Positions 1,587 to 21,313 of a stretch of 35,674 nt of DNA are shown here, in pieces. A program made the position numbers and the translations under genes. A model generated the notes under the pieces. The model did no database searches, was not told where the DNA came from, and saw nothing but the letters and a program-made list of their open reading frames with translations. Numbering within the stretch: position 1 is the first letter of the stretch; every line of letters begins with the position of its first letter. The stretch lies in UHGV virus genome UHGV-0134856; one strand, given 5' to 3'. This stretch comes from a virus.

Positions 1587-1602
1587 GGTCGGAATCCCGA
1601 CT
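1587..1602 (-). promoter_or_regulatory. Late-unit hairpin motif copy a (GGTCGGAATCCCGACt), about 55 nt upstream of the holin start
   Basis: 16-bp inverted repeat, member of a 5-copy family. Confidence 0.5.
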
Positions 1603-1729
1603 ATATTGTGGAGGTCGATTCAGGCAACCACTGATGGTAAACTCTCTCCAATCCTTAAAAAACCTCGAAAGACCTGGGTTTATCGTGGCTGTTAAGAGGC
1701 GACGAACTGTTAATTAAATCGAAAAGGCA

Positions 1730-1915
1730 ATGTCTATGGTGGAATCAATTTCTAATAACTTTGTGAGATTTGCAGCCTTACTGAGCGCTATAGGATTAAT
1801 AAAAAGGCATAGTGAAGGCAATAGCGTAATGAATTTGATAGAGATTGTCATGATAGCTATGTGGCTGCAAATGGATTACGGAAAAATTTTATCTTTATTA
1901 AAAAAATCACATTGA
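1730..1915 (+). CDS. Small hypothetical protein (61 aa) immediately upstream of the acyltransferase; possible leader or membrane peptide of the moron
   Basis: AT-rich ORF ending 4 nt before the acyltransferase start; no recognisable domain. Confidence 0.3.
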   Translation: MSMVESISNNFVRFAALLSAIGLIKRHSEGNSVMNLIEIVMIAMWLQMDYGKILSLLKKSH

Positions 1916-1919
1916 AATC

Positions 1920-3053
1920 ATGGTTAATATGAAAACAGAAAAACTTAATGGAATTGAGGCGCTAAGGGGTATCGCTGCCTTGGTTGTTGCACTTGGTCAT
2001 AACCGGGGACTATTTGGACAGGTAGATCCTGGGTCCTTTATGGATAGAATCACGGCAAATGCTATATTTGGCGTTGAAGTTTTCTTCATAATTAGCGGTT
2101 TTATAATCTGCTATTCTACCAGAAACATAAAGGCGCCATCACTAAGAAATACATCCGCCTTTCTTATTAAAAGATTTTTCCGCATATACCCGGTATATTT
2201 TGTAATACTATCCATATACGTACTGCTTTTTTATAAGAATTTGTATACAGGAATCCATGCAGGTGGAGAACTGACTATACATAACATTATAAAGTCTATT
2301 TTCCTAATACCGCTGGATTGGAACTCATTACCACCTTACTATGGATGGGGAACTATAATCGTTTCGTGGTCACTTGGGTATGAGCTGTATTTTTATTTTG
2401 TATTTGCAATTTCCATGACAATAAGTATTAAATACAGGGCTATTATTTCATCATTAATATTGATAGCAGTCAGTATTTCTTTATCTTTGGCATTAAGCGA
2501 TAACATTATAATTGATGCGCAAAAATATTATTTCCAGGGAGGTTTTTTACTCTCTCATTTTGGATTTATAGGAAACCCAATTGTCTTTGATTTTATACTT
2601 GGAATGTTGATTTCACATATCACTCCTTATATTGACAGATTAAATATTAACAATGACATAGTTAACAGTTTCGCCATAGCATTCCTTGGCCTGTCATTCG
2701 TGTTTTGGTTGAATGGTATGTCAGAAGGTCATGGTATAACAAGATCTGCCTATATAGCATTCACTATAGTTATTTGCGTAATCACTCTTGAAAAGCACTC
2801 AATTATAAAATTCAGCAATGCCCTTACATCATTAGGCGCAATATCATACTCACTTTATTTGATACATGTGCCCGTAATAAAGTTTATAGAACTATATGGT
2901 CAACTTATTGGCTTAAACACTAATGTTAGATCGCTTGCACTGTATATATCGTCAATTACAATATCAATATGCCTTGCTTATATAATATATAACGCAATTG
3001 AAAAACCATTCATTAATACAGGCGCAAAACTAGCAAGGCGGATTTCTAAATAA
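1920..3053 (+). CDS. Acyltransferase family 3 integral membrane protein (O-antigen/LPS O-acetyltransferase type; lysogenic conversion moron)
   Basis: About 10 predicted TM helices, N-terminal EALRGIAALVVALGH motif typical of Acyl_transf_3, very AT-rich relative to flanking phage DNA, opposite strand to the late genes. Confidence 0.85.
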   Translation: MVNMKTEKLNGIEALRGIAALVVALGHNRGLFGQVDPGSFMDRITANAIFGVEVFFIISGFIICYSTRNIKAPSLRNTSAFLIKRFFRIYPVYFVILSIYVLLFYKNLYTGIHAGGELTIHNIIKSIFLIPLDWNSLPPYYGWGTIIVSWSLGYELYFYFVFAISMTISIKYRAIISSLILIAVSISLSLALSDNIIIDAQKYYFQGGFLLSHFGFIGNPIVFDFILGMLISHITPYIDRLNINNDIVNSFAIAFLGLSFVFWLNGMSEGHGITRSAYIAFTIVICVITLEKHSIIKFSNALTSLGAISYSLYLIHVPVIKFIELYGQLIGLNTNVRSLALYISSITISICLAYIIYNAIEKPFINTGAKLARRISK

Positions 3054-3058
3054 CGTAA

Positions 3059-3090
3059 GGGCGTCTCACGACGCCTTATTTTTATACGTT
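3059..3090. terminator. Bidirectional rho-independent terminator between the acyltransferase (+) and tailspike (-)
   Basis: AAGGGCGTC-tcac-GACGCCTT stem followed by ATTTTTAT on plus, with a U-rich tract also on the minus side. Confidence 0.7.
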
Positions 3091-5076
3091 TGTCCCGTCA
3101 GCCCTCTGCCAGTTACCAGATGTTGCATTCCAGTAGATTGGAAGCCCCAATGTTGTATCGAAATAGGTGAACCCCATTCCAACACCTGTCGGCCTTGATG
3201 AGGTGGATCCGCTATAAAATGTGTCTGGAACTCCACGGCAAGCTAACACTCTATTTTTTGAACCCGGGTTTGTATTAATGTATATCTTTGTTGTCTGATC
3301 GTCATCTAGCTGAATACCCATTAGCGTAATATCAGTACAGCTAGCTGCTGGATCAGTAAATCCAATAGGCTGTACGTAATAACCACCATATGAGTACGAT
3401 GTCCCCATGGCTCCTCCAGATACTGTGGATTGCTTGCTGTTGCTTAGTGACATTCCTCCGGTTTTATTCCCATTTAAAATGTTTCCTCCAAAGTTACATT
3501 GAAACAGATTTAGGGCCCTAAGACCAAATGCGCCGCAATACGTAATCACATTATCTGAGAAGGTTCCAGAAACGCTGTTAGTTATTAAAACTCCGTCTTT
3601 TCCAAGGTCTCTACCAGCAGAGATGAGATTTCCAGTTATAGTGAAATAAGCAAGTCTGTCAAGGTCTAATGCAGATCCACGAATTGCATCCATAACACAA
3701 TGATTAATATGTATAGGGAATCCGTATGTTTTATCGCCAGGCAGTAACCCTGGCGCTGTGTATCTCTGGCGAACAACAAATTCTCCGTTATAGAAAATGC
3801 TGTTTGAGAGAACTGCATCTGTCGTATCAATCAAATCAATTGGTGAATTAGAGGAAAAGCAGTTTAACCACCGAGGCATCTCGCTAAGGTGATTATATGT
3901 ATTCGTCGTAGCTGCTCCGTAGAATGGACTACCCCAACGCTGGCAGAATATATAATCAATATAATGGAAGTTATCCATTATTGTCCCGGTGTTGTAGAAG
4001 AAACAGCGTTCCCACAGTGCGTGTTTCAAATGCCGGAATAAAAACGCGCTCGTGAGGGAAACATCCGCAGCGAATGTAAGATTACGAAATACTCCTCCAC
4101 GAACCTGGTTAGCATCTTCTGGTCCAGTTCCGTTTGCTGTGAACATGACGAATGTTGCATCAGTACCTGGATATTTTAGTTCAGTGTTAAAACCTAGACC
4201 TTCAATATTCCAGTTTGGAGGTAAAACAACCTCTCGCGTCTTCATATAGTAAATACCGGAGCTTCTAAGTCTGACGTTAGGGGATTTTACAAACGCTTTT
4301 GTGAATGCAAGGCTATTATCTACATTCATGTCATTAACCTTGCCGCCAAAATCTTCCAGAAAAACGAAATCATCGAGCTTGTCCTGCACGGTTCTTGGCA
4401 CACTGCCATCCGCAGGATACTGATATCCAATCTGTGAAGATCCTGTAGGCTTCGCCAGCTCTATCATCACGTCAGAGGCAGACCCTGATTCTGGCAACAC
4501 CGGAATAGGGTCACCTGAATTATTAAATGCCAGCAGTTTATTGCGACGCAGATCCAGCGAAGGTACTAACCCAACGGATTCCTCTGGAACGCGCAGCACC
4601 CGGGATAAAGATATGCTTTCTAAATACTTTTTAGTCACTGCGTCCTGCGCATTTACCGGATCTGCCAGTTTCTCAATACGATAACCCTCTGCATCAAAGG
4701 GACCACCGAACAGCGGGCGGCGAAGTGCCAGACCGAGATGTATACCGTAACGCTGTATCGCCATCCAGAGGCGGTCAAAATCCTTATTAACCGTGTCGGC
4801 CAGGAGGTCGCCGTTATCCTGATAATCGGTCAGCCTGTACGTTGGCACTACCCTCTCCAGCATCACAACCGATCCGCTGGCTGGCGGGGTGATAAAAATC
4901 ACATCCCCGCCGCCGATATTCCCTACCCCGGACACCGTGTACCCGCTAGTAATAACGGTGCCGTTAATTGTGACCTGAATATCACCGGAGTTGATGACAT
5001 AGAACTCGAAGGGAAAAACGGTGGTCAGGCCGTTGGCGTTATAAATTATATATGGAGTCTGGTTCGGTACCGACAT
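3082..5076 (-). CDS. Tailspike / tail fiber: T7 gp17-like N-terminal tail-attachment domain plus right-handed beta-helix (pectate-lyase-like) polysaccharide depolymerase domain
   Basis: N-terminus (YIIYNANGLTTVFPFEFYVINSGDIQVTINGTVITSGYTV...DAEGYRIEKLADPVNAQDAVTKKYL) follows the T7 gp17 N-domain pattern. The rest is Gly/Asn/Ser-rich repetitive beta-helix-like sequence. It sits after terL as in SP6/K1-5-type genomes. Confidence 0.85.
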   Translation of the reverse strand: MSVPNQTPYIIYNANGLTTVFPFEFYVINSGDIQVTINGTVITSGYTVSGVGNIGGGDVIFITPPASGSVVMLERVVPTYRLTDYQDNGDLLADTVNKDFDRLWMAIQRYGIHLGLALRRPLFGGPFDAEGYRIEKLADPVNAQDAVTKKYLESISLSRVLRVPEESVGLVPSLDLRRNKLLAFNNSGDPIPVLPESGSASDVMIELAKPTGSSQIGYQYPADGSVPRTVQDKLDDFVFLEDFGGKVNDMNVDNSLAFTKAFVKSPNVRLRSSGIYYMKTREVVLPPNWNIEGLGFNTELKYPGTDATFVMFTANGTGPEDANQVRGGVFRNLTFAADVSLTSAFLFRHLKHALWERCFFYNTGTIMDNFHYIDYIFCQRWGSPFYGAATTNTYNHLSEMPRWLNCFSSNSPIDLIDTTDAVLSNSIFYNGEFVVRQRYTAPGLLPGDKTYGFPIHINHCVMDAIRGSALDLDRLAYFTITGNLISAGRDLGKDGVLITNSVSGTFSDNVITYCGAFGLRALNLFQCNFGGNILNGNKTGGMSLSNSKQSTVSGGAMGTSYSYGGYYVQPIGFTDPAASCTDITLMGIQLDDDQTTKIYINTNPGSKNRVLACRGVPDTFYSGSTSSRPTGVGMGFTYFDTTLGLPIYWNATSGNWQRADGTNV

Positions 5077-5096
5077 GATGCGAAACCTCTGGCAAG

Positions 5097-6707
5097 TTAG
5101 TAATCGACGTCGACCAGATGATCTCCGTCACTTAACTGCCAATCTTCGCGCGTATGTCCGGTCGGAATCCCGACCACTTTCCCGATGCGTACAGGGGTCT
5201 GACTTATTGCTCCCGCGCCAGAGTCTATAAAGTCGTCCGGCTGGTTGGTCAGCGCCGGGTTAAAGTCACGCATCTGGTCGTACACAGGGCCGTCGAGCAC
5301 GTCAGTATGCGCCCACAGGAACCGCGAGGACAGCGGCGCTTCAAACGCATCGAGGATGCGTTTCTGCTTGTTGGTGATACTGAACTCTTCCCGGACGCCG
5401 CAGCCCGTCCCCTTGAGCGCCTGACGCAGTAATTTACCCGCGAAGCTGCCCGGGCCGTTTACTTCGACACAAACCACTGGGATCTGATATTTGAGCACCA
5501 GCTCTTTGATCTGCGCTACCTGCCCGCCGGTGATTTTGTCGTTATCGTCAAACTCCGCCAGCTCGCCGGTGAGTTCCTGGCAGATATGCCAGTACAGATG
5601 CCCCCTGGCATCCGTCAGCATCAGAGAGAACGCCGAGGCGTCAGCCTTAACCTTGCCAGTGGCCACATCCCACCAGGCGACAGCACCAACTATTTGCACG
5701 TTGCCAAGCCAGAGCGAGGCCGTGCGGTTTGCATAGCGGATCTGAGGGTGAATGTTGTATTCCCGGATGCGGTCAGGGTCGAGGCGAACGTCTCCGACGG
5801 GTTTACTGTGCAGCTGATACTGGCTATCCCACTCGTTAATCGTGCGGGTTTCTTTACGGCGGTTCTCCATTTCTTCACGGGTGAACCGTTCAGGCCAGGC
5901 GCAGTCTGCATAAAAATCGATAACCGTGTCCGGTGCGTCCGCAAACTCAACGCCGGACACGGTCAGCTTATAATCCACGTTTTCGACCAACAGTCGCGCC
6001 GCCTTGTGGATGCCCGCAAAGACATATTCCGGACGGAAAGATAACTCGTAGCGCAGCTGCGTTGCGTCTTTTGCCTCGATGCGTTTTTCTTTATCAAACA
6101 GCCGGATGGTAAGACAGTCAGCGCCCATAGACTCTACCTCATCGTAAAGGCTGTCATGCGTGTGTGGCGTACCAATGTAGAGTTTGCGCCCGCCGGGGAT
6201 CAGGATGTGGGTTTGCTCACCCAGGCGATAGCGCAACTTTTCACGCGCTTCCGGCGTCTGGATATTGCGGGGTACTTCAACGTCATCGTTCTGGCATTCG
6301 TTGGCGCGCGCTGAGGTTACGTTAGACAGGATGCCTTTTGCGTACATGCTGCCGTTACGTAAATCCAGCGCACCATTAACCCACCATTGCTCAACGGTTC
6401 CCTGCCCGTCAGGAAGCATACCTTTGGTCAGCGGATGGTTACGCAGGACGTTCTGAGTGTCACGGCTGGTTTTATACGCGGTTCCGTCTGATTCAGACTG
6501 ATGCAGAATGCGGTACTGACGATCGCAGTAGTATCGCCAGGCATTATAGACCGCAAGGATCGTTGATTTACCGAAACCACGGAAACAGCGAAGCACCGCG
6601 AGGTTTCCGCGATGCTCCAGCCAGTGGCAGGCCTGATAGTGGCAGTCCGGAACGTCCCAGTTCATTCGCTCCGCCCACATTAAAAAGAAGGCGAGGAACG
6701 AAATCAT
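5097..6707 (-). CDS. Terminase large subunit (T7 gp19-like)
   Basis: Walker A FRGFGKST in the same context as T7 gp19 (FRGIGKS), nuclease-like C-terminal half, ATGA overlap with the upstream small subunit. Confidence 0.9.
   Translation of the reverse strand: MISFLAFFLMWAERMNWDVPDCHYQACHWLEHRGNLAVLRCFRGFGKSTILAVYNAWRYYCDRQYRILHQSESDGTAYKTSRDTQNVLRNHPLTKGMLPDGQGTVEQWWVNGALDLRNGSMYAKGILSNVTSARANECQNDDVEVPRNIQTPEAREKLRYRLGEQTHILIPGGRKLYIGTPHTHDSLYDEVESMGADCLTIRLFDKEKRIEAKDATQLRYELSFRPEYVFAGIHKAARLLVENVDYKLTVSGVEFADAPDTVIDFYADCAWPERFTREEMENRRKETRTINEWDSQYQLHSKPVGDVRLDPDRIREYNIHPQIRYANRTASLWLGNVQIVGAVAWWDVATGKVKADASAFSLMLTDARGHLYWHICQELTGELAEFDDNDKITGGQVAQIKELVLKYQIPVVCVEVNGPGSFAGKLLRQALKGTGCGVREEFSITNKQKRILDAFEAPLSSRFLWAHTDVLDGPVYDQMRDFNPALTNQPDDFIDSGAGAISQTPVRIGKVVGIPTGHTREDWQLSDGDHLVDVDY
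5160..5175 (-). promoter_or_regulatory. Late-unit hairpin motif copy d (perfect GGTCGGAATCCCGACC), inside the 3' end of terL and about 85 nt upstream of the tailspike start
   Basis: Perfect 16-mer; placement like the T7 phi17 promoter inside the end of the preceding gene. Confidence 0.5.
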
Positions 6708-7045
6708 TTTTTCCCTTTCTGCAGGCGCTCAATAATCGCGGCCGCCTCTCGCTCAGCTTTTGAAACCTGCTGGCCCAGCGCAAAGGCTTCATCATCCTGA
6801 CCAGGATTATCGGATGGCGTACCGCCGCGCGTTTGCATGCCAATCAGGGAGTGAACCTTAATCAGCAGCGTCAGCGATGCGGCTGCATTCTTCTTATCCC
6901 AGTAGCGATCACCGCGTTCATCCTTGGTCAGTTCGCTCGGTTTCTTCCCCGCCCCCGGCCAGTTTTCCGGATCGGCTTCTTCGAGCACCACGTCGGTGAG
7001 TTTATCACTCAGTGCGGTAAGGCGTGTTTTGTAATCCTGATGCAT
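6704..7045 (-). CDS. Putative terminase small subunit (gp18 analogue)
   Basis: 113-aa hydrophilic protein directly upstream of and overlapping terL. The start at 7045 is chosen because the longer frame would place the intergenic hairpin motif inside the ORF; RBS is poor. Confidence 0.5.
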   Translation of the reverse strand: MHQDYKTRLTALSDKLTDVVLEEADPENWPGAGKKPSELTKDERGDRYWDKKNAAASLTLLIKVHSLIGMQTRGGTPSDNPGQDDEAFALGQQVSKAEREAAAIIERLQKGKK

Positions 7046-7073
7046 AAAAAAGCCCCGTAGTGAATACAGGGCT
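7046..7073 (-). terminator. Weak intrinsic terminator-like hairpin plus U6 immediately before the terS start
   Basis: AGCCC-N11-GGGCT followed by TTTTTT on the minus strand. Confidence 0.3.
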
Positions 7074-7091
7074 ATGATGGAACAGTCCAGA

Positions 7092-7107
7092 GGTCGGAAT
7101 CCTGACC
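7092..7107 (-). promoter_or_regulatory. Late-unit hairpin motif copy b (GGTCGGAATCCtGACC), between the 963-aa internal virion gene and terS
   Basis: 15/16 match to the family consensus; the G-U wobble keeps the stem intact. Confidence 0.5.
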
Positions 7108-7109
7108 GA

Positions 7110-10001
7110 TTACCGCATGCCAGGGTCAACCTGATTTATCAGCGGCGCAATCCAGAAAAGATTGTTTCCCGGTAGCAGCGTACGCACGTTGTGCAGCACC
7201 CGGTCACCTGCATCACCATTGAGCACACCAGCGGTCACGTCGGTAATGGTATCGAGCAGGCCAAACGTCGGCCCCAGCGCAGAGCCGATAAAGCCACGGC
7301 TGGCATAACGTGACTGTGTGCCGGTACCGAGCAATGCGCCCAGCCCCACCATTCCGCCGGATGCCTTTTCCGCCATATTGTTATATTCCATCAGAGGGCC
7401 GAGAATACCGGAACGGTCGACACCTTCAATGACGAGTTTCTGAGGCGACCAGTCAACCTCTTTACCGTTTGCAGACTGTTTCAGCGCGTACGTCAGTGCG
7501 CCGAGGCCAATCTGGAAAGCGGTACCGTAATAAAACTGACCGGTTCCCTCCTGCAGGCCGCCCAGCGTTGCACGGTTGTAGGACGCAGTAGCGAACGATT
7601 TAAACTGGAAGATAGTTTTACCCAGCGGCGTGCTGGCCCACAGTGGTGTATCGCCGATCCCCGGTGTGATAACGGTATTGTTAACGTCTTTGAGCACCGC
7701 CGACTGGAAGACACCAGCCACATGCTGATCGTCCCATTTTTCAAAATTGCCGATATGCCAGCCATTGATTACCTCGCCGTGCTTTTCGAATTCGCTGCGG
7801 ATACGCGCGGCCATATTGTCGTTAATGCCGAGCTTGGCAAGGCGGCGGCCAGCGAACGTACCGGACAGAATTCCGTCAGAGGTGATCATGCCGTTTACCG
7901 ATTTGTTCATATCGTCGAAGTGGCCCATCAGCGTGAGCTTGCCGAACGCATCGGTGACGCGCTCCATGCCCGCTTCTACCGCCGTAGTGCGGGCGGAACT
8001 GTCTACCAGGTCGCCCATCGTACGCGCGCGGGTATGGAGGATGGTCTCCAGCCCGACGGCCATTTTTAACTGTTCGGCCCGGTTGGCCTTGAATGCCGGC
8101 GACCGAGTTATCAGCGCAGAGTAACCGCGCATGGTATTGCCAAACCCATTAACCATCACACCGCGGGCGAGATCAGGAATAGCGGAAACGGTCATACCGC
8201 CAAGCTTGGTGACAAAGTTAGCGCTGCGAAGGAACGCACCGGCGCGTACGAAAAATGATGATGGATCGTCCGGCATGCCGTAGGTACCCGCCAGGCGGTC
8301 GCGCAGCGCTGTGATGTCGCGAATATCGTTATCGCGGGCTTTCGCCAGCTTCGCCTGGTCTTTGGGGTTCTGGCGCATCAGCGCATCGTATTCATCCTGA
8401 ATATCCTTGAGCTGCTTTTCCAGCGATTTGTTACCGAATGCGCGCGTCAGCTCAACCTCTGCTGACGCCTCGCGGATATGACGCTGCAGTACATAATTGG
8501 CGTCGCTCTCCAGATAATCTTTCATCAGGCGATCGGGAACGCTGAGCGTACGCGACCGGGTGCTGCCTGCCGCTTTCACCATAAAGACGTTCGCAAAATC
8601 CTGCGGTATTTTTGCGCCGACAATTTTATTGATCGTGGCATCAGCCGTAATTTCAGCCTCTTCGCGGGACATGCTTTTCTCACCGCGAGACCACCAGTCG
8701 ACCAGCATGTCGCGGAATTTATCGCGCTCGTTAACGATCTTGCCGACTTTGTACACGCGCGGGAAATAACTCTCCTGACCGATGGCTTTCAGTTCCTCGT
8801 CAGGCGGCAACAGGCCAAGCTTTTGCTGCGCCACTTTCACCCGGTTAACCACGGTGCGCATTGCCTGTGCCGCTTCCTGCACCACCGGATTAGCATGCAC
8901 ATCGCCGCTGCGCATGGCGTTGCCAACTTCCTCACGGAACTGTGAAAAGCTCAGGTCACCGCCAGCCGCTTTGTACTGGCTGTAGGCCTGCTTGTTCGTC
9001 ACTACGACGGCAGCCTCTTCACGACGCCACCCGCGCACGCGGGTTTCTGCCGCGACGGGCGTCTCGATACCCCGGGCATTACCCTGCAGGGTGTAGTTAT
9101 TCTCCGCCAGCTCCAGCGCCGTACGGCGGGAGGTTTTCGACGGTGACTCCATAAGACGGGTAAACGGCGTCAGATAACTGCCCGCCTTACGTGCCAGTTT
9201 ACCGACCGGACCGCCAGCTGCCGGAGTGAGATCCTCGAGCGTTGCCTCACTGATTCTCGCCGCGCCGACGCTACCACCTTCGGGGAGCGATGCAGCAGCG
9301 GTGTCCGTCGCTGACGTGATACTCATATTATCGAGCGCATCAGCCACTTCGCGCGTGGCAGCAGTGCGAACAGAGGGTGACAGCGCTGCGCCGGCTGCAG
9401 CAAATACACCGCTCATCAACGCACCGGCTGCCACGTGGGAAGCACTTTCGCCCCATGTGCGGGTGATCTGCTGGTTATTCAGGACAACCTCGCTCGCTGC
9501 TGTTGCAGCTGCACCGATTGCAGCCTGCGACGCGATACGGGCAACCGCGCCGCCCTGCGCACCGGGGATAAACATGGAAGCTACGGTGACAGGGTCTACC
9601 ACTCCGGCTGCAATGCTGGCGAGGACACCTTCGCCGCCCGCCTCGGAAAGTACCCTGCGGTCCTCGTTTTCGCCGTCAATCTGTTGTTTCAGCCAGGCGG
9701 TCTCCTCCGGCGATCGGGAATCAGCAAACGCCGAGCCCCACTGTTCGTACCCGTGCAGCTCGGTTTTATCCGCATAAGGGTTATAACCCTCTACCGGCTC
9801 AAACTGTTTGGCCGGGCGGAACATTTCGCCAAGCAGGTTATTCTGACGAAATGCAGCGCCCCACACAGACGGCTCATCCTGCTGAGGTGCCGGGTTGGTA
9901 CCTTCAGGCAAAGGCACATCAAATCCGGTAGGTGCAGCCAGGACATTACCCGCCGGAGTGAATCCGTTATTCAGTTCTTCAGGGATGGCGTATACCGGCA
10001 T
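7110..10001 (-). CDS. Large internal virion / ejection protein (T7 gp15/gp16 analogue), 963 aa
   Basis: Ala/Gly-rich 963-aa protein in the position of the T7 core proteins, downstream of the SLT-containing protein. Confidence 0.65.
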   Translation of the reverse strand: MPVYAIPEELNNGFTPAGNVLAAPTGFDVPLPEGTNPAPQQDEPSVWGAAFRQNNLLGEMFRPAKQFEPVEGYNPYADKTELHGYEQWGSAFADSRSPEETAWLKQQIDGENEDRRVLSEAGGEGVLASIAAGVVDPVTVASMFIPGAQGGAVARIASQAAIGAAATAASEVVLNNQQITRTWGESASHVAAGALMSGVFAAAGAALSPSVRTAATREVADALDNMSITSATDTAAASLPEGGSVGAARISEATLEDLTPAAGGPVGKLARKAGSYLTPFTRLMESPSKTSRRTALELAENNYTLQGNARGIETPVAAETRVRGWRREEAAVVVTNKQAYSQYKAAGGDLSFSQFREEVGNAMRSGDVHANPVVQEAAQAMRTVVNRVKVAQQKLGLLPPDEELKAIGQESYFPRVYKVGKIVNERDKFRDMLVDWWSRGEKSMSREEAEITADATINKIVGAKIPQDFANVFMVKAAGSTRSRTLSVPDRLMKDYLESDANYVLQRHIREASAEVELTRAFGNKSLEKQLKDIQDEYDALMRQNPKDQAKLAKARDNDIRDITALRDRLAGTYGMPDDPSSFFVRAGAFLRSANFVTKLGGMTVSAIPDLARGVMVNGFGNTMRGYSALITRSPAFKANRAEQLKMAVGLETILHTRARTMGDLVDSSARTTAVEAGMERVTDAFGKLTLMGHFDDMNKSVNGMITSDGILSGTFAGRRLAKLGINDNMAARIRSEFEKHGEVINGWHIGNFEKWDDQHVAGVFQSAVLKDVNNTVITPGIGDTPLWASTPLGKTIFQFKSFATASYNRATLGGLQEGTGQFYYGTAFQIGLGALTYALKQSANGKEVDWSPQKLVIEGVDRSGILGPLMEYNNMAEKASGGMVGLGALLGTGTQSRYASRGFIGSALGPTFGLLDTITDVTAGVLNGDAGDRVLHNVRTLLPGNNLFWIAPLINQVDPGMR

Positions 10002-12709
10002 TATTCAGTGCTCCACGAAAAGTAATTTTTAACCCTGTCCATGCGCTCGTTATGCAGGCGCTTGTACTGCTCATCGAGCGCACGGTGTTTATCTTTGAAC
10101 CCACGAATATCCTGCCCGCGTTGCAGCTCATTGCGATTATGTTCTTCGCGCTCTTCCTGCATTTTTTTGTATGGCGCCCACTCTTCCAGTGACGGTTTCC
10201 AGCGCATCGGCCTGCCGTACGAATCGTAGAACGGTTGTACCGCCTCGATACCATCCTTATCTTTTGTTCGCACCATGATGGCGTAATCGCCGTTGCGGGC
10301 CGTCATAACATCAGGGGTAATTTCCAGATCACCGCCAATACGCGACTCCGGCGTTTTACTGGTGACAGGTGCCGCGTTACCGGAAGTGATCCCAAGCTGC
10401 GCTGGGCTGGTGGTGATCTCGCCCTTGCGCTCGCCGTACATCAGGTTTTCTTTTTCTTCTTTCCACTGTGCCGCTTGCCAGCCTGACGGACCGTAGTTAT
10501 AGAGTGCCTCCGGCGCGTATTTCATAAGTTTTGCGTCGCCGTTAACCTCGCTGATACTCCAGGTGCGGGCGATCTGCTGGTTGGTCATTTTTTTGGCCGC
10601 ATCCGCATTACCGCCGGTAGTGCGGTAATTGATGTCGTACAGCGACTGGTAATCGTTGCGGAAACGTGCGGCCTCCGGCGTCTGATCGTCGGCAGATGGA
10701 TTTCCCCAGCTAAAGAAGCCCGACATGCTGCTCACCGCAGAATCCATCGCTTTGCCGCGGTCTTTTTTGTACTCCTTGGTGCTCTGGGTTGATGCCAGTT
10801 GCGCTTTGAGTGCATCGGTCTGGTTGTATGTCAGATTCTGCGCCTGTTCGATAGCGGTTTCGGACGCCATGCCAGAATCGGTAAGCTGTTTAACGGTGAG
10901 ATAAAATCCCTGCATATCCTTTGGCATGTCGCCAACAGACGCGGGATCCGTGTCATAGAGGCGATTAAATAACTCTGCTCCCTGACGGACCGCCTCAGGA
11001 CTGCGCGCGCGGGATATCGCCGATAACTGGGTGGTTACCTGCGAAGGGATGATCCCGGTCTGGGCCACCTGCTGCACAACCCCGTCATGGGTGGTGGCGT
11101 CGTTAATCCGGAAGTTTTGCGCCGTTGGCGTGGCGTCGGCGGCTTTTTGCATGGATTTGTTGGTAGGGTCAAGTTTCTCACCCATAGACAGCGCTTCGTT
11201 AAAACGACGGGTATCACGCTGCGCCTGTATCGCTTCATTGCTTTTCTGCACCAGCGCGCCGAGCTTGCCATACGCATCGAGCTTGAGCGCATAATCAGGG
11301 TCATTTGCCTGAGGTTTTAGCTTTGCGATTTCTGCCTGCTGCTGTTCCGGGGACACGTACTGTATCGCCTGGAAGGTTTTGGCATTGTTGATCGCGATGT
11401 CGAGCTGCTTAACGGCTTTTGCCCCCTGCTCGCCGTACGCAAACATAATTGACGCTTTATCGGGCATCGCGTCAGGCACTTCCCCGTTGTACAGCTGCAC
11501 CATCGTATTGTTCAGAATCGGGTCAATTTGCTCGCGCAGCGCCGTACGCTGCTCGCGGATTTTTGACTCGGCAATGTTATCGATTTTGTTAACCGACACA
11601 GGATCGAGACCGGTTTTATTTTTACGGTACCGAGCCAGCCACCCGCGAGTTTCAGAGGGCAGCTTGCTGATAAACTTAGATTCAGAAATTTCGCCCTTGC
11701 GTGGGTCTCCGGTTTTCGCGATCAGCTTGTCAACGTTACCCATACCCCAGTTATAGGCAGCACCCGCCAGCATTTCAGAGCCATATTTACCGTACAGCTG
11801 ATTTGCGTAATCGCTCGCCAGCAGGGCATTTTGTTCTTCATCTGCCGGGTTATATTCAACTCCGCGCTTCGCCGCCAGCTCTTTACCCGTGTCCGGCATA
11901 AGCTGGTATTTACCCTGAGCACCGGCGGGCGAGGTAATCACGCTGCCGTCAGCGTTAAAATGCTTACCGCCGGACTCGACAATACCGATAGCGCGCATAT
12001 CAAGCGCGCCGGTATCTTTCATAGGAAAATCACCTGCGAGCCACCCCTGAGGGTTAGATACCGCATAATTCTGTGCACGCTGCTCCGTCGCGTTTAAATC
12101 CGCAGAAGTAATAGCCTGCGCAATCTGCTCTGATGACCATCCCTGTGCCTGACCGTAAAGCTCAATAGAATGTTTACGTGCTCCGCGCGCCAACGCTGCC
12201 GCCTGAGGGTCATCATATGCACTGGCTTCCTGCTGAACGGAGGATTTAACAGTTGTTTCAAACTGACTTTGCTGTGCGGCCGCTGTCTGTACGCGTTCAA
12301 AAGTATTATAGGTGCTGAGCCGTTGGACCTGACCCGCTTTCCACTGCGCGTCAAAATACTGCAGCTGGCTCTGCGGTACGCGTTTACGGGCCTCTTCATA
12401 GTCGGAAGAGTCCTGCTTATCCATGTCCAGACCAACGCCGGAAGACTTGAACCCCTGCCGGGTTACCAGCGCGCCGGTCTCCGGGTTTTCCCAGCGGTCA
12501 CTGGATTTCGCATCAAGATCGGTAAGGATAGCCTGGGTTGCCGCCACATCCGCTTTATCCTGCGTGCGCTGTACCTCATCAGCAGTCTGACCTAAAGCCG
12601 CCCCCAGACCTGCAACTGCGTTACCTATTTGCCCGACACTGCTGACACTGACGCGGGTAGGATTCGCCTGCGGCGTAACGTTACCAAAATTACCCGTTGG
12701 AATTCTCAC
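10001..12709 (-). CDS. Internal virion protein with soluble lytic transglycosylase (SLT) domain (T7 gp16-like function), 902 aa
   Basis: SLT signature GIVESGGKHF...GAQGKYQLMPDTGKE...AAYNWGMGNV at about residues 230-330. Confidence 0.8.
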   Translation of the reverse strand: MRIPTGNFGNVTPQANPTRVSVSSVGQIGNAVAGLGAALGQTADEVQRTQDKADVAATQAILTDLDAKSSDRWENPETGALVTRQGFKSSGVGLDMDKQDSSDYEEARKRVPQSQLQYFDAQWKAGQVQRLSTYNTFERVQTAAAQQSQFETTVKSSVQQEASAYDDPQAAALARGARKHSIELYGQAQGWSSEQIAQAITSADLNATEQRAQNYAVSNPQGWLAGDFPMKDTGALDMRAIGIVESGGKHFNADGSVITSPAGAQGKYQLMPDTGKELAAKRGVEYNPADEEQNALLASDYANQLYGKYGSEMLAGAAYNWGMGNVDKLIAKTGDPRKGEISESKFISKLPSETRGWLARYRKNKTGLDPVSVNKIDNIAESKIREQRTALREQIDPILNNTMVQLYNGEVPDAMPDKASIMFAYGEQGAKAVKQLDIAINNAKTFQAIQYVSPEQQQAEIAKLKPQANDPDYALKLDAYGKLGALVQKSNEAIQAQRDTRRFNEALSMGEKLDPTNKSMQKAADATPTAQNFRINDATTHDGVVQQVAQTGIIPSQVTTQLSAISRARSPEAVRQGAELFNRLYDTDPASVGDMPKDMQGFYLTVKQLTDSGMASETAIEQAQNLTYNQTDALKAQLASTQSTKEYKKDRGKAMDSAVSSMSGFFSWGNPSADDQTPEAARFRNDYQSLYDINYRTTGGNADAAKKMTNQQIARTWSISEVNGDAKLMKYAPEALYNYGPSGWQAAQWKEEKENLMYGERKGEITTSPAQLGITSGNAAPVTSKTPESRIGGDLEITPDVMTARNGDYAIMVRTKDKDGIEAVQPFYDSYGRPMRWKPSLEEWAPYKKMQEEREEHNRNELQRGQDIRGFKDKHRALDEQYKRLHNERMDRVKNYFSWSTE

Positions 12710-16203: not shown

Positions 16204-16232
16204 TGAAAAAAGGCCGGGGGGATACCCCGGCA
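16204..16232 (-). terminator. Rho-independent terminator immediately after the capsid gene (T-phi-like position)
   Basis: GCCGGGG-tatc-CCCCGGC stem followed by U6 on the minus strand. Confidence 0.8.
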
Positions 16233-16246
16233 AACACACCAGCGGC

Positions 16247-17158
16247 TTAAACAACAAAATCGATGGCGACGACTTTTTTCTCGTTGGCGCGGCCAGCACC
16301 ATAAGACGCATCAACAGAGATCTGAATGGTGTTGTTTTTATCGCGACGTGGTCCGATATCGACGTTGTACTCAGCGCCGGTACCGAAATGCACAGCAGAT
16401 TTACACCATGCGACGGCGGTTTTGGTGGTAACGGCCGGATCGCCTGCGGTCGCAGAATCCAGTTTTTCGTATGCCAGCCACTTAAAGCCGAGCCAGTTCC
16501 CAGACACTGCGCCTTCCTGCAGCATTTTCACCGCCATGAAGTCGGCAGAAGTCAGCGTGGTATCGCTGAGGATCTGCGTCAGCATGTCGGCGTTGTAGGT
16601 GATATACAGCTCTTCACCGTTCTGTTCGTCGCACTCGTTGCGGCGGAACATCGCTTTCGCGGCGATCAGCTTGGCTTTGGTCATGCCCGTGCCACCAGCA
16701 ACGATTTTTTGCGACGCAGGCAGCGCCACCGGTGCATACGCACCGCCGCTGGACGTTTTACGCATCACAGGGTCGAGCAGACCACGATAAACAACATCGT
16801 CTTTTTTGCGGTTGGAGGCCGCCAGGGTGAGCTGCAGATATGGACCCTGCGGGTCGGCCAGCAGTTTACGCAGGTCACGTTTTTCAACTGGTACGAATAC
16901 ACCGTAGTCCGCCATCAACGCGTTACGGGTGCCCGCTTCTGGCAGGTCCCATACAGTGTCACCGAAACGCGTGGTGATCTGCGTCATTTCGATGGTGCCC
17001 ATATCGTTGATGGTGAACGCCTCGCCGGTGATCATCCCACGGTCATTTACCGCAGCCTGCAGGCGGGAATCCTTCTGCTGCGCGGCGATTTCGAAAGAAT
17101 CATGAAACTGCGTGATAAACGCAGCGGTGATCATGTTCTTATTGGCATCAAATGGCAT
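16247..17158 (-). CDS. Major capsid protein
   Basis: 304-aa protein after scaffold; GGAG RBS 10 nt upstream of Met 17158; flanked by terminators as expected for a highly expressed coat gene. Confidence 0.75.
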   Translation of the reverse strand: MPFDANKNMITAAFITQFHDSFEIAAQQKDSRLQAAVNDRGMITGEAFTINDMGTIEMTQITTRFGDTVWDLPEAGTRNALMADYGVFVPVEKRDLRKLLADPQGPYLQLTLAASNRKKDDVVYRGLLDPVMRKTSSGGAYAPVALPASQKIVAGGTGMTKAKLIAAKAMFRRNECDEQNGEELYITYNADMLTQILSDTTLTSADFMAVKMLQEGAVSGNWLGFKWLAYEKLDSATAGDPAVTTKTAVAWCKSAVHFGTGAEYNVDIGPRRDKNNTIQISVDASYGAGRANEKKVVAIDFVV

Positions 17159-17307
17159 AACAATCACTCCAGAAAATATCGCCTGCTGGGGTATCGGTTT
17201 CCCGGCCCAAATCTGCACAATGCGGGTGGCGCTTACGCACTGCGGGAAAATCAGGTATCCGGCGTCCCCGCCGGGCTGGTTGTGGGTAGATTGTTAGCGA
17301 GGTTGGC

Positions 17308-17323
17308 GGTCGGAATCCCGACC
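17308..17323 (-). promoter_or_regulatory. Late-unit hairpin motif copy c (perfect GGTCGGAATCCCGACC), immediately after an intrinsic terminator and about 150 nt upstream of the capsid start
   Basis: Perfect 16-mer; placement analogous to T7 phi10. Confidence 0.5.
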
Positions 17324-17326
17324 AAA

Positions 17327-17357
17327 TGAAAAAGCCAGCCTGACCCGCTGGCTTTTG
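17327..17357 (-). terminator. Rho-independent terminator upstream of the capsid unit
   Basis: AGCCAGC-gggtcag-GCTGGCT followed by TTTTTCATTT on the minus strand. Confidence 0.7.
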
Positions 17358-17373
17358 GTAACAGGAAGGGTGA

Positions 17374-17544: not shown

Positions 17545-17577
17545 CGGTATTGCCTCGCTTTAAATTGTCGTGACATG

Positions 17578-18414: not shown

Positions 18415-18634
18415 AATCTTCTACTCCATCGGCTCTGTTGATCTGACTAAGAATGAAATCGAGTACGGAACGCTGTCCGGCCCGGTAACAGGTTTCACGG
18501 TCACCCTCGGTACCGCCTTTCACGTACGCTTCGCGACCGAAGCGCTGGGTTAGTTCTTCCAGCACAGGCGCACCGCCTGGCATTTCTTCAAAAATCCGCT
18601 TGTAATCAGCGGGTGTGGCCTCTTTGGTTCTCAT
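18401..18634 (-). CDS. Hypothetical small protein (77 aa), translationally coupled to portal (ATGA overlap)
   Basis: Start overlaps the portal stop; no recognisable domain. Confidence 0.45.
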   Translation of the reverse strand: MRTKEATPADYKRIFEEMPGGAPVLEELTQRFGREAYVKGGTEGDRETCYRAGQRSVLDFILSQINRADGVEDYVED

Positions 18635-20256
18635 TGGTTACCTGCCAGTCGTTGCCCGATTGCCGCGCCAGCGGTCTGCCCTGCGGCTCCAGCCGCCTCG
18701 GTGCCAGCCTGCATCATGAGCTGCTGCTGAGCGGCCTGCTGCTGTGCTTTCTGGCGCTGGTCTCGGAGGTCCGCCACAGCATCGGAAGAGCGAATTACTT
18801 TTGCCGGAACCCCCAGCGCATCGGCCACAACGCGCGTGGCTTCGTCGGTATCGATGAGGTCAACAACGTCCTGGCTGATACCAGCAAGGTTTGCCACGTT
18901 CGCGCCGAGGCGTTCGATTGCCGTCACGTCTTCCAGTTTCTGGGCGCGTGCCAGAGGTGAGATGTAACGCACGTTGAAATTGGCGTTCTGGAGGCTCTCC
19001 GGCGGCGGGGAGAAGATGCCAGCGCGGAAAGCAATACCGAAGCAGCGCACCACCAGCAACTGGAGATATTCAGCCTGGAACCGGCCATAAACCGGGCCTA
19101 GCAGCTGACGAATCAGCGCGACGCGCACATGCACTTCGGTGGCGGTCATCGCTGGGCCGTCCTGCGGCTGCAGCTGGTCGGCCATCATGATTTTGCGGAT
19201 TGATGCCTGCAAACGCTCTTCTGCGGTGAATGCCACGCTGAAATCGGAGCCGGTCAGCAACGGTTTCATGCTGTCGACGCTGTTCGCCACGATGATGCGA
19301 CGCGGGCCGACTTTGACCGTACGCGGGTTGAGTACGCCGTCGTCTTCGGCAATCCACATGCCGGAGATAGCCAGATCCTGCGCGGCTTTCTCCATGCGCT
19401 TGGTTTCGTTCAGCTCTTTGCAGTCCGGCAGCGCGTCGTACACCGGGCCGATGCCATAGGAGCCGCCGGGGATTTTCATCCAGCGCGGCACGCAGCACGG
19501 GAATTCGTGATAGCCGGATTCACGTACCACCTGCTTGTTGCTCACGTCGACGTTGAACGACGCAAAGCGCATGTTTTTCGCCAGGCGGGCATCGACCATG
19601 TAAGTTTCGCGCGGGAAAATGCAGTGCAGGAAATCGAATTTATCGTCGGGCTTTTTCTTCGCCGCGTCGCGGATCTTCTCGCTGACCTTGTCCGCGCCGA
19701 ATTCTTTGATGGCCTGCTCTGCGGTCAGCTGGTAGCGGCGGTAGATCGTGTCCACGATGCCATCCTTGCGGGTGGACGTGACATAGCACTGCGCCAGCGG
19801 CCACTGCTGGAAGGTGTAGCCGCCCTCTTCCCGGTTCTCGTCGATGTACAGAACGAACCAGCCCGCGCACACCACGTCGAGATTCGCCTCGTAGCCCTCA
19901 GCGTCGAAGTTTGCCGCATGGATATTTTCCCAGATCAGCGTTGCGCACTCAGACAGCCAGGCTTTGGCATCGTCCGGCAGAGATTCGCTGTCGAGGTTCA
20001 GCCATTGCGCGTTCGCCGGGGTCATGCCGGACATGAGCGCAGAGGCCAGCATGCGGGCGCTATCGGTGGCGGTGCCGTCCAGTAGCTTCGCCACCTTGTG
20101 TTTTGCGCTCTGAGCATCGAGCACTTCGTCAGAGAATCCCGCGCCGCGCAGCGGATAGGTGTATTCATAGCACTCGCGCCAGACGCTTTCATGCTGCTGG
20201 CGGTTGGCTTTCAGCGTGTCGGAACGCTTAATCAGCTTAACGGCGAGTTCATCCAT
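18631..20256 (-). CDS. Portal / head-to-tail connector protein (T7 gp8 family)
   Basis: 541 aa (T7 gp8 is 536 aa). N-terminal NRQQHESVWRECYEYTYPLR vs T7 DRAPYETRAQNCAQYTIPSL, ARMLASALMSGMTP vs ARGLNNLASKLMLALFP, Gln/Ala-rich C-terminus as in T7 gp8. Confidence 0.9.
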   Translation of the reverse strand: MDELAVKLIKRSDTLKANRQQHESVWRECYEYTYPLRGAGFSDEVLDAQSAKHKVAKLLDGTATDSARMLASALMSGMTPANAQWLNLDSESLPDDAKAWLSECATLIWENIHAANFDAEGYEANLDVVCAGWFVLYIDENREEGGYTFQQWPLAQCYVTSTRKDGIVDTIYRRYQLTAEQAIKEFGADKVSEKIRDAAKKKPDDKFDFLHCIFPRETYMVDARLAKNMRFASFNVDVSNKQVVRESGYHEFPCCVPRWMKIPGGSYGIGPVYDALPDCKELNETKRMEKAAQDLAISGMWIAEDDGVLNPRTVKVGPRRIIVANSVDSMKPLLTGSDFSVAFTAEERLQASIRKIMMADQLQPQDGPAMTATEVHVRVALIRQLLGPVYGRFQAEYLQLLVVRCFGIAFRAGIFSPPPESLQNANFNVRYISPLARAQKLEDVTAIERLGANVANLAGISQDVVDLIDTDEATRVVADALGVPAKVIRSSDAVADLRDQRQKAQQQAAQQQLMMQAGTEAAGAAGQTAGAAIGQRLAGNQ

Positions 20257-20259
20257 CAG

Positions 20260-20487
20260 TTACGCCCCCAGAGTGTTTTTCTGCTGCGCTGCCTGCGCGC
20301 CAGAGGACAGCAGAGAGCTGCCAGAATCAGCCGCACCCTCTGCACCACTGGCGAGGAGGGAGGAGCCTTTCTTGCGCTTCTTGCGCGATGCTGCGTCTGC
20401 GTTCGCCGCTTTTGCCGCTGCGTCTGCAGCTGCATCCGCTTCGGCCTGCGGGTCGGTCTGAACGACCTTTGGTGCACTTCCACACAT
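20260..20487 (-). CDS. Small low-complexity virion protein (T7 gp6.7-like)
   Basis: Starts MCGSAPK (T7 gp6.7 starts MCFSPK), Lys/Ala/Ser/Gly-rich 75 aa, strong GAGGGGG RBS, directly upstream of portal. Confidence 0.45.
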   Translation of the reverse strand: MCGSAPKVVQTDPQAEADAAADAAAKAANADAASRKKRKKGSSLLASGAEGAADSGSSLLSSGAQAAQQKNTLGA

Positions 20488-20500
20488 GGCGATCCCCCTC

Positions 20501-20986
20501 TTAGCCCGGAACGTGCCAGCCATGCTCAGTCAGAACGGGCTTACCCGTTACAGGCTGAGGCTTGCCCTCGTCGTTCGTCACGTAGCCGAGCGGTGCGGCA
20601 GGTGCCGCCGTGGTGGCTTTTTTGACGAGCTGGAGGAATTCGAGATTGTCGGTTAACTGCTGGTCAGCAAGGTCGGTGTAACCCAGTGTTTCAAAGTGGG
20701 CGATGATGGCCGCGCCCTGCTCGTTGATGGTACCCAGCAGAGTGTTGCGCTCTGCGAGTGCGGCATCGTCCAGCAGGCTGGCAACGCGCTGCTGGATGAC
20801 TTCCTGCTCTGCGCGCTGATTGTCTGCGTTAAGCGTCTGGATCTCAGTCGCTGTAATTGGGGCATCAGCAACGGTCTGGTTAACAGGGGCAGAATTAAGC
20901 AATTGCCCTTCCGCCACGATATTGGTTGTATCGGTACCAGCAGTTTCCTGCCCCGGTACCTCAACGTTTTTTCTTGGTCGACCCAT
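20501..20986 (-). CDS. Hypothetical late protein (161 aa), first gene after the late-unit hairpin copy e
   Basis: N-terminal MGRPRKN basic motif, Gln/Thr-rich body; GGAG RBS. Confidence 0.5.
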   Translation of the reverse strand: MGRPRKNVEVPGQETAGTDTTNIVAEGQLLNSAPVNQTVADAPITATEIQTLNADNQRAEQEVIQQRVASLLDDAALAERNTLLGTINEQGAAIIAHFETLGYTDLADQQLTDNLEFLQLVKKATTAAPAAPLGYVTNDEGKPQPVTGKPVLTEHGWHVPG

Positions 20987-21022
20987 TTTGGATATCTCCG
21001 GATGAATGGTGAGCGGTCATTG

Positions 21023-21313
21023 TTATTTGCATGCCTGGTCAGTTTCCCGACCAAAACGCGATTTACGGAAGGTGAACCACTGGCGATGCAAAACCGTGGG
21101 TAATTTTTTTCTGTCAGAGTTGGTTGCCATGCACCACAACGCAATAAGCGCCTCACCATGGCCGTGGCGAGGTTCAGATCCTGACTTCCAGCCCAGAACG
21201 GCAGATTTCGAAACGCCCAGTTCGTTGGCAATTTCCTGTGTCGTGAGGTTTTTTCTGGTCAGGTCGGTAATGACCCGGAACCAGTCGGTTTTGAAGGTGG
21301 CGACCAGTGGCAT
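21023..21313 (-). CDS. Winged-HTH DNA-binding protein (MerR/AlpA/Nu1-N-terminal-like); candidate late regulator
   Basis: LTTQEIANELGVSKSAVLGWKSGSEP helix-turn-helix pattern. Start at Met 21313 has a GGGGAG RBS; the ORF-track N-terminal extension has none. Confidence 0.6.
   Translation of the reverse strand: MPLVATFKTDWFRVITDLTRKNLTTQEIANELGVSKSAVLGWKSGSEPRHGHGEALIALWCMATNSDRKKLPTVLHRQWFTFRKSRFGRETDQACK
21037..21052 (-). promoter_or_regulatory. Late-unit hairpin motif copy e (diverged: GGTCAGTTTCCCGACC) at the start of the virion gene block
   Basis: Same stem halves GGTC.G / CCGACC with a different loop; between the HTH gene and the first late gene. Confidence 0.35.

Follow-up and report, generated by a model that had tools for sequence, protein, structure and literature searches.

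A dispersed palindrome with a fixed-distance -10 element as the probable late promoter of a T7-like temperate podophage, and a small XRE-fold protein as its candidate activator

The virus genome UHGV-0134856, analysed here as one window of 35,674 nt, carries a 16-bp palindrome, GGTCGGGATTCCGACC, in five dispersed exact or near-exact copies, each followed at a constant distance by a hexamer of the -10 type. Judged from the sequence, the 16-mer is the upstream half of promoters that bear a -10 element and lack a -35 hexamer, and the five elements are very probably genuine promoters, at the heads of five late transcription units. A 96-amino-acid (aa) helix-turn-helix (HTH) protein, encoded directly upstream of the first of them, is the candidate that we favour, with moderate confidence, as the activator of all five.

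A mismatch-tolerant search places exact copies of the 16-mer at 5160-5175 and 17308-17323, copies with one mismatch at 1587-1602 (GGTCGGAATCCCGACT) and 7092-7107 (GGTCGGAATCCTGACC), and a copy with three mismatches at 21037-21052 (GGTCAGTTTCCCGACC), all on the minus strand. An earlier note on this DNA, made from the letters alone, had listed these five positions, and they are borne out: with up to three mismatches allowed, 0.34 matches are expected by chance (standard deviation 0.68, maximum 3, in 100 dinucleotide-preserving shuffles). Read on the minus strand, which is the coding strand of the late genes, the copies take the form GGTCGGGATT or GAAA...CCGACC, that is GGTCGG-GATT (or GAAA)-CCGACC, and the five-copy alignment confirms the constant orientation relative to the late genes that had been described. 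The accompanying statement that the motif occurs nowhere else is correct up to two mismatches. At three mismatches it fails, as there is a sixth match on the minus strand, CGTCGGTATTCCGACA (26089-26104), which lies inside the 3' end of a DnaB-like gene, retains the GTCGG/CCGAC cores and is followed after 12 nt by AAGCGT. This palindrome is found in one near-identical locus and is not conserved in the Escherichia coli prophage L122 (81% identical), and is therefore probably fortuitous; a role as a middle or autoregulatory promoter was set aside for the same lack of conservation. Two of the five copies fall within coding sequence. The copy at 21037-21052 specifies the C-terminal FGRETD of the HTH protein, that at 5160-5175 specifies VGIPT near the end of TerL, and these in-gene copies are kept at synonymous, even non-synonymous, cost.

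The earlier note reported that no shared -10 or -35 hexamers follow the motif. This holds for the -35 hexamer only, since in the minus-strand alignment a hexamer nAnnnT begins exactly 12 bp after every window copy (TACCCT, GAAGAT, CATCAT, AACAAT and AACAAT, from the copy at 1587-1602 to that at 21037-21052), position 2 being A and position 6 being T in 5/5. Those two bases are the most important ones of the sigma70 -10 element. To avoid bias in testing the -10, we scanned IMG/VR with the bare 16-mer and recovered at least 120 stretches. Counting offsets from the first base of the motif, A stands at +29 in 151/164 non-identical instances and T at +33 in 149/164. When 163 instances were clustered on their downstream flanks into 30 flank classes (less than 60% identity between classes), A(+29) and T(+33) occurred together in 70% of the classes; any other offset from -36 to +69 accounted for at most 14%, with the adjacent +28 making up a further 13%. 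A short A/T patch, A-W-T-T, directly precedes the motif, and the promoter consensus becomes A-W-T-T GGTCGGGATTCCGACC N12 nAnnnT. Scored with a position-weight matrix of the whole element, the five window copies reach 28-44 bits, against a top score of 10.0 in 20 shuffled windows.

With the hexamer set at -12 to -7, the conserved A and T fall at -11 and -7, as in sigma70 -10 elements, and the palindrome spans about -40 to -25 with its centre at about -32.5, 23 bp upstream of the centre of the hexamer. It occupies the place of a -35 element, where GGATTC (-35 to -30) has 0/6 matches to TTGACA. A consensus scan found no TTGACA-like -35 at 16-18 bp before any of the five hexamers; its sole match near a motif, TTGCCT-16-TATAGT at 1627-1600, lies upstream of the copy at 1587-1602 and uses a different -10. 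Neither the IMG/VR alignment nor the window copies show a conserved TG extension of the -10. The earlier view that this is not simply a sigma70 promoter thus gives way to that of a sigma70-type element wanting only the -35 hexamer. A separate scan of genome contigs (596 Gb) was left out of the -10 statistics because the hexamer A and T had been preselected in it; it returned 31 matches against roughly 17 expected by chance on our own rough estimate, and about half of the 31 are probably chance singletons.

All five elements lie on the minus strand, with predicted starts 25-65 nt 5' of the start codons of a 161-aa open reading frame (ORF) and of the capsid, presumed terS, tailspike and holin genes. 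Late promoter 1 (21019-21056) consists of TTTT, GGTCGGGAAACTGACC (21052-21037), 12 bp and AACAAT (21024-21019), and scores 28.3 with the matrix; its hexamer overlaps the HTH stop codon, the start is predicted at about 21012, and downstream come the 161-aa ORF (20501-20986), a small ORF (20260-20523) and the portal gene (18631-20256). Late promoter 2 (17290-17327; ATTT, GGTCGGGATTCCGACC at 17323-17308, 12 bp, AACAAT at 17295-17290; score 44.0) stands before the major head gene (16247-17218), where a start at about 17283 would leave a leader of roughly 65 nt. The third (7074-7111; AATC, GGTCAGGATTCCGACC at 7107-7092, 12 bp, CATCAT at 7079-7074; score 32.5) precedes the presumed terS (6704-7045) and terL (5097-6707), with a predicted start at about 7067. 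Promoter 4 (5142-5179; AAGT, GGTCGGGATTCCGACC at 5175-5160, 12 bp, GAAGAT at 5147-5142; score 37.2) lies within the 3' end of terL and before the tailspike gene (3082-5076), its start being predicted at about 5135. Promoter 5 (1569-1606; ATAT, AGTCGGGATTCCGACC at 1602-1587, 12 bp, TACCCT at 1574-1569; score 40.9), with a predicted start at about 1562, heads the lysis genes, namely holin (1203-1532), endolysin and Rz. PHROGs searches support the major head, terL, tailspike and holin assignments (all minus strand) on which the earlier gene contexts depended, as well as the portal, tail-tube, internal virion and endolysin genes. The terS and the 'first virion gene' at 20501-20986 match PHROGs of unknown function, and those two names are positional guesses only.

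The arrangement recurs in relatives. In L122, whose annotation includes a 'Bbp19 family protein' that ties the virion module to BPP-1-like podophages, the element stands at the same five places with the hexamers CACAAT, AACAAT, CATCAT, GAACAT and TACCCT. What the Yersinia phage YeP4, an inducible podovirus (PMC6548840), shares with the window phage is limited to its late module, its endolysin and its small HTH protein; the genes for replication and immunity differ, and the early region is unrelated. YeP4 too carries five sites at the same five places, and syntenic sites are shared between phages whose HTH proteins are only 48% identical. The motif had been placed at the heads of the five late units, with the suggestion that related prophages be searched at syntenic positions; both L122 and YeP4 bear this out, and the random scatter that had been named as the contrary outcome (non-syntenic copies, copies in both orientations, copies without a hexamer) was not seen. 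Four of the YeP4 sites carry a private variant, RGTCRGGAAACCGAAY: these are AGTCGGGAAACCGAAC, GGTCGGGAAACCGAAC, AGTCAGGAAACCGAAC and AGTCGGGAAACCGAAT, followed 12 nt later by CACACT, TAGCCT, GACCAT and GACCAT, respectively. In YeP4 TerL the residues VGIPT have become VGKPN and carry the phage's own motif variant. Because four dispersed sites have changed in concert, YeP4 argues for a phage-encoded reader over a conserved host protein.

Our candidate for this reader is an XRE-fold HTH protein encoded on the minus strand at 21023-21313. Its gene is the last of the early rightward operon (in order cro, YdaT/CII-like, O, DnaB, nin-like region, NinB/Ref, HTH) and ends inside promoter 1. The earlier note had proposed the same protein, and it remains the best candidate by its co-occurrence with the motif and as the sole regulatory protein common to the window phage and YeP4. 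The label of winged HTH that it was given does not fit: in the AlphaFold (AF2) model the fold is of the XRE/Cro-C1 type, lambda-repressor-like with five helices and a central HTH, and has no winged helix. Foldseek matches this model best to the repressor domain of P22 c2, CapH and several restriction-modification controller C proteins (the fold matches include C.EcoT38IS, C.Kpn2I, C.AhdI and C.BclI). The controller C proteins come nearest to it in fold, although sequence identity to them is no more than 10-19%. Such proteins, for example P22 c2, C.Kpn2I and C.AhdI, are small dimers that bind palindromes at promoters. Homologues of the HTH protein occur in Citrobacter, Klebsiella, Raoultella, Serratia and Pectobacterium, where they are listed without a name as 'hypothetical proteins', and a profile search of 1.84 billion cluster representatives gave 1,344 50%-identity clusters at E<=1e-3, with 302 at E<=1e-10. 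In Pfam and NCBIfam the protein has only sub-threshold generic HTH matches, and no curated family reaches its cut-off. A PDB sequence search with the profile likewise returned only non-significant HTH matches, lambda CII being among the weak ones (E 0.5-0.8); the best E, 0.025, fell on an unrelated acetyltransferase stretch.

Two further features lie upstream of the HTH gene. Just upstream of its ribosome-binding site is a GC palindrome followed by a T run, CTCGCGC(NN)GCGCGCGTTTT (21328-21347, minus strand), which is present as CTCGCGC(NN)GCGCGCGTTT(T/A) in all relatives examined, down to YeP4, with the central dinucleotide alone varying. It might act as a weak terminator, as an attenuator or as an operator for expression of the activator, and hence could bear on the timing of the late switch. 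Farther upstream within the early rightward operon, a bidirectional terminator-like hairpin, ACCGCCGGGAACGGCGGT (22777-22794), separates the phrog_536 'transcriptional regulator' gene (22816-23154) from the NinB/Ref/HTH genes, which suggests that expression of the HTH gene would need read-through or a promoter of its own.

Motif and HTH gene are linked far beyond the close relatives. Among loci selected by the motif, 31 of 34 HTH homologues have a same-orientation copy between -45 and +220 bp of their stop codon; these homologues are 30-99% identical with GC of 0.50-0.66, and include proteins of only 30-54% identity from contigs of 62-66% GC. Where loci were instead selected by the protein, a copy with up to 3 mismatches adjoins the HTH stop codon in 73/80. 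A generalised palindrome-plus-hexamer lies within -80 to +800 in the case of 44/54 distinct HTH proteins, and most of the ten proteins that lack it have recognisable variants just beyond our thresholds. The density of generalised promoters is 46 matches in 47.5 kb; the same strand farther upstream has 4 in 208 kb, and the opposite strand has 4 in 413 kb. Protein and site also appear to vary together. In a high-GC clade the half-sites are GGCGG...CCGCC, as in AGGCGGGATTCCGCCC and TGGCGGGATTCCGCCG, and with a related protein GGGCAG...CTGCCC; in this clade the recognition helix has the sequence ...TLRGWK or ...TVRGWK, with Arg at helix position 7, or else has Arg at position 4, and in the GTCGG group position 7 is hydrophobic and position 3 is Lys/Arg. 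Such co-variation would be the signature expected of a protein-site pair, and we regard it as suggestive.

Based on these observations we can propose how the late genes might be switched on. We infer that the HTH protein would bind the palindrome as a dimer and recruit or stabilise host sigma70 RNA polymerase at weak -10 elements, activating rather than repressing five units: the first late genes with portal, the capsid gene, terS-terL, the tailspike and lysis. Late genes would come on only once the HTH gene, the last of the early genes, had been expressed. Together with the terminators that would partition the late region, this would produce a transcription map resembling that of T7 although no phage RNA polymerase is involved. 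Of the three options raised in the earlier note, a palindrome bound by a dimeric activator is the best fit. In the IMG/VR motif instances conservation is far stronger in the promoter-proximal arm than in the distal one, and the centre, conserved as GA-W-H, lacks symmetry; both features would fit an oriented complex with RNA polymerase. More broadly, we consider the chances evenly balanced that the 96-aa protein founds a large, so far unrecognised family of XRE-fold late activators (BcepC6B gp01-like) whose site, centred at about -32.5, replaces -35 recognition, so giving temperate podophages without an RNA polymerase a T7-like multi-promoter late programme on the host enzyme; its half-site variants (GTCGG, GGCGG, CCGAAC), co-varying with the recognition helix, would then be orthogonal pairs.

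Several points weigh against this proposal. The hexamers are weak (TACCCT, GAAGAT) and have no extended -10 TG, and a simple class II activator would not usually have its site centred at -32.5, a position that would overlap the place of sigma region 4. Confidence in the AF2 model is moderate (pLDDT 74). The adjacency of gene and site could merely mirror conserved gene order, and the co-variation of helix and half-site, drawn from few and related lineages, is therefore counted as suggestive only. RefSeq calls the HTH homologue gp01 of Burkholderia phage BcepC6B (36% identical) a 'transcriptional repressor', and phrog_16553 bears the same label, which may be no more than annotation. Finally, the remotest homologues, those of BcepC6B and the Acinetobacter phage TPWB-05, come from phages without the promoter set, and the family of HTH proteins thus extends beyond the motif. 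BcepC6B has one related perfect palindrome, GGCCGGGATTCCGGCC (5751-5766), with no -10-like hexamer; TPWB-05 (PQ374146) keeps the same late gene order and has none of the 16-mers but a different repeated motif.

As to what these two phages carry instead, the BcepC6B palindrome GGCCGGGATTCCGGCC sits within the gene gp07, with the major head gene about 385 nt downstream. In TPWB-05, CACCCAACAAACC followed by a hairpin and T run directly before the ATG occurs in at least five late intergenic regions (about 3401-3560, 8390-8451, 11887-11964, 20800-20883 and 25689-25756), and looks like a different late-unit signal in a related virion module.

The promoters could be real and yet be read by something other than the HTH protein, either another phage product such as the 161-aa protein or a host factor, with the HTH protein unrelated to them or a repressor; we think this unlikely, though it deserves to be taken seriously. 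The evidence for the promoters is independent of the HTH protein, whose BcepC6B and PHROGs counterparts are annotated as repressors, and the 161-aa first late protein, which has no Pfam, NCBIfam or PDB match, is also common to YeP4 (31% identity). A conserved host factor could also account for the presence of the identical 16-mer both in Enterobacterales phages and in those of Burkholderiales-like high-GC hosts. On the other hand, the concerted change of four YeP4 sites and the change of both half-sites in the high-GC clade point to a phage-encoded reader, and promoters without a -35 require activation, not repression alone. The 161-aa protein is produced only from the first motif promoter and therefore cannot initiate the cascade. 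It is the HTH protein, moreover, that is linked to the motif in 73 of the 80 protein-selected loci. That the copies play no part in transcription and are a selfish or neutral repeat (REP-like, or a signal for homing or packaging) is the least credible of the alternatives. Short intergenic palindromes are often repeat elements, and the HTH protein has a faint, sub-threshold likeness to the HTH of small terminase subunits; the fixed orientation and -10 spacing, the syntenic positions across phages with 48% identical HTH proteins and the cost at which the two in-gene copies are kept all speak against it.

Two further alternatives take the palindrome to act as a hairpin. If it worked as a stem-loop in the RNA of long late transcripts, whether for processing, for stabilisation or for boxB-like antitermination, the hexamer being incidental, it would have a 6-bp stem and a 4-nt loop, in one copy GAAA, with a DNA fold of -5.9 kcal/mol, and a few relatives show two-arm changes that preserve pairing (GGCGG/CCGCC, GGGCAG/CTGCCC, GGTCAG/CTGACC). 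T7 offers a parallel in its intergenic RNase III hairpins. The symmetric changes are equally expected of a dimeric protein, however, and an A/T pair fixed at 12 bp has no role in a hairpin. The commonest variants produce A.C mismatches in the sense RNA (43 flank-unique instances versus 12 with G.U), stability falls to -2.2 and -2.9 kcal/mol in 2/5 window copies, the 'loop' is conserved as GA-W-H, and the promoter-proximal arm is much better conserved than the distal one. The motif also lies upstream of the predicted starts, and neither Rfam at gathering thresholds nor a tRNA scan found a match in the window. We therefore regard the RNA option, which the earlier note had raised, as improbable. 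An extruded DNA hairpin or cruciform, forming a structured promoter like the early promoters used by the virion RNA polymerase of phage N4, seems more improbable still. The stem of 6 bp and loop of 4 nt come near N4 sizes, the N4 promoter hairpins having stems of 5-7 bp and 3-nt loops, and large internal virion proteins (902 and 963 aa) are present. What these proteins match, however, is a transglycosylase and internal proteins of the T7 gp15/gp16 type rather than a polymerase. Several natural copies are imperfect palindromes whose hairpins would have very low stability, the A-11/T-7 signature of sigma70 is conserved, and the promoters are late rather than immediate-early.

The earlier claim that a control element of this kind had not been described is overstated, as the late promoters of Mu, P1 and P2 share the design. 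The late promoters of Mu (Plys, PI, PP and Pmom) bear a -10, no typical -35 and a 16-bp imperfect dyad bound by C, a small HTH dimer of the phage that enables the host RNA polymerase to initiate (PMC2582627). The likeness to the elements described here extends to the -10 without a -35, the dyad of 16 bp and the small HTH protein, here a candidate reader. The differences are equally clear: the Mu dyad is centred at -43.5 and ours at about -32.5, the site sequences are unrelated, and in C and in Mor, which acts at the Mu middle promoter, a four-helix dimerisation bundle forms the N-terminal part and the HTH lies C-terminally, whereas our protein is modelled as XRE-type with a central HTH. It does not belong to the Mor/C family, no Mor-family match appearing in the Pfam listing for 22 HTH family members (E<=0.1), in the scanned window ORFs, in the PDB sequence matches (E<=10) or among the listed fold matches. 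P1 has 11 dispersed late promoters made up of a -10 and a conserved inverted repeat bound by the phage activator Lpa (PMC10695390; PMC3152322). The P1 repeat is one of 9 bp at -22, used together with host SspA, in contrast to 16 bp at about -32.5, and no likeness to Lpa turned up, although the Lpa sequence itself was not compared directly. P2 late promoters under Ogr have an inverted repeat at about -55 (PMC3152322), whereas our site abuts the -10 region, and no match to the zinc-finger activators Ogr/Delta was found in the scanned ORFs. In sum, the system would work like those of Mu, P1 and P2 but, on the position and sequence of its site and the family of its protein, belongs to none of them.

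Other activator systems resemble it in part. The lambda CII site, TTGC-N6-TTGC, spans about -38 to -25, nearly the same stretch as our palindrome, and at PRE, PI and PaQ it overlies a poor -35. CII, a small HTH activator, straddles the -35 and binds the face of the DNA that lies opposite to sigma domain 4 (PMC7419079). It differs in being a tetramer that reads direct repeats at lysogeny promoters, whereas the site here is an inverted repeat at late lytic promoters, and the sequence likeness is non-significant. Controller C proteins govern one autoregulated restriction-modification operon through paired C-boxes (GACT...AGTC), which differ from our motif, and here single sites serve five dispersed promoters. 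In T4, a MotA box centred near -30 replaces the -35 together with AsiA and a sigma70 -10. That box is asymmetric and read by a monomer with the sigma-remodelling AsiA, and no MotA/AsiA homologues were found here. Lambdoid Q acts from one late promoter on a downstream terminator; the gene in the Q position here encodes an XRE-fold HTH protein, and there are five promoters. The likeness to the distribution of T7 class III promoters that had been pointed out does hold: promoters stand before the head genes, the capsid gene, the tail-fibre or spike gene (inside the end of the preceding gene), packaging and lysis. T7 has a single-subunit polymerase and a 23-bp promoter, unlike the window phage, which has no polymerase gene and pairs a sigma70-type -10 with a palindrome. 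The layout is thus mirrored, with host polymerase and a candidate activator in place of the phage polymerase.

The literature that was searched gave no earlier account of the element, of the set of five promoters or of what the HTH protein does. Searches of literature full text with the motif in both orientations and with its 12-14-mers gave unrelated primer matches only, and the literature on BPP-1-like phages, YeP4, BcepC6B and T7-like temperate phages without an RNA polymerase yielded no description of it. The words 'promoter' and 'transcription' are absent from the YeP4 paper (PMC6548840); 'promoter' and 'palindrom' are absent from the APSE paper, which mentions transcription only in passing. 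This site and protein family thus seem to be undescribed. No principle is overturned and the proposal is not conceptually surprising, because phages, to our knowledge, as a rule switch on their late promoters by means of a small DNA-binding protein. We know of essentially no study, however, of late-gene timing in temperate podophages with T7-type virion modules and no RNA polymerase. The BPP-1/BcepC6B/YeP4-like group comprises common 35-kb prophages of Citrobacter, Klebsiella, Enterobacter, Serratia, Yersinia and E. coli, for which the present work yields a promoter consensus, five mapped transcription units, a named candidate activator and natural specificity variants. The consensus would improve annotation, the HTH family now being labelled 'hypothetical' or 'repressor', and could provide compact orthogonal activator/promoter pairs.

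As the earlier note had stated, no RNA polymerase gene was found. The large ORFs are otherwise accounted for (exonuclease, internal virion proteins, tail protein, portal, terL, tailspike), and the sole large unassigned one, at 31139-33352 (737 aa), was rejected as a polymerase, being a RecE-like exonuclease. The scanned ORFs, which did not include every small one, yielded no member of the families of RNA polymerase, sigma, Q, Mor/C or Ogr.

Terminator-like hairpins, all on the minus strand, stand ahead of promoter 2, across the start of promoter 3 and behind the capsid gene, and would partition the late region. The first, an intrinsic-terminator-like hairpin with a T run (17330-17356), ends a few bases before late promoter 2, and the junction of T run and ATTT is kept in relatives; it would insulate the capsid unit from transcription arriving from upstream. 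Between the -10 of promoter 3 and the terS ATG lies AGCCCTGTA-TTCAC-TACGGGGCT followed by T6 (7051-7073), and the whole -10/terminator/T6/ATG junction (7051-7079) is kept in L122, YeP4 and IMG/VR relatives. The predicted start of promoter 3, about 7067, falls inside the 5' arm of this hairpin. Transcripts from promoter 3, without that arm, presumably could not form the terminator, which would stop read-through from the internal-virion-protein genes; the stretch would thus be a compact junction that terminates read-through and then restarts. The third, a strong hairpin with 7 G-C pairs and T6 (16213-16231), lies just 3' of the major head gene and is comparable to T7 T-phi after gene 10. No motif promoter follows it, and the 'every late transcription unit' of the earlier note is too firm a statement.

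Some smaller features accompany the late genes. Downstream of the capsid promoter, the leader contains a hairpin, CCCGGCGGGGACGCCGG(ATACC), at about 17255-17275 on the minus strand, which recurs in enterobacterial and high-GC relatives with altered stem bases and may be an mRNA stabiliser or an element of processing or translation. The holin leader has a hairpin of its own, CCCCGCGGGGG (about 1538-1548, minus strand), which abuts the holin Shine-Dalgarno sequence GGGGGTAAGG and is found, with variants, in many relatives; it may exert translational control over the timing of lysis. Between the tailspike gene and the lysis cassette, the plus strand carries a low-GC (33%) O-antigen acetyltransferase moron (1920-3053, phrog_3333), flanked by a bidirectional terminator at 3054-3077.

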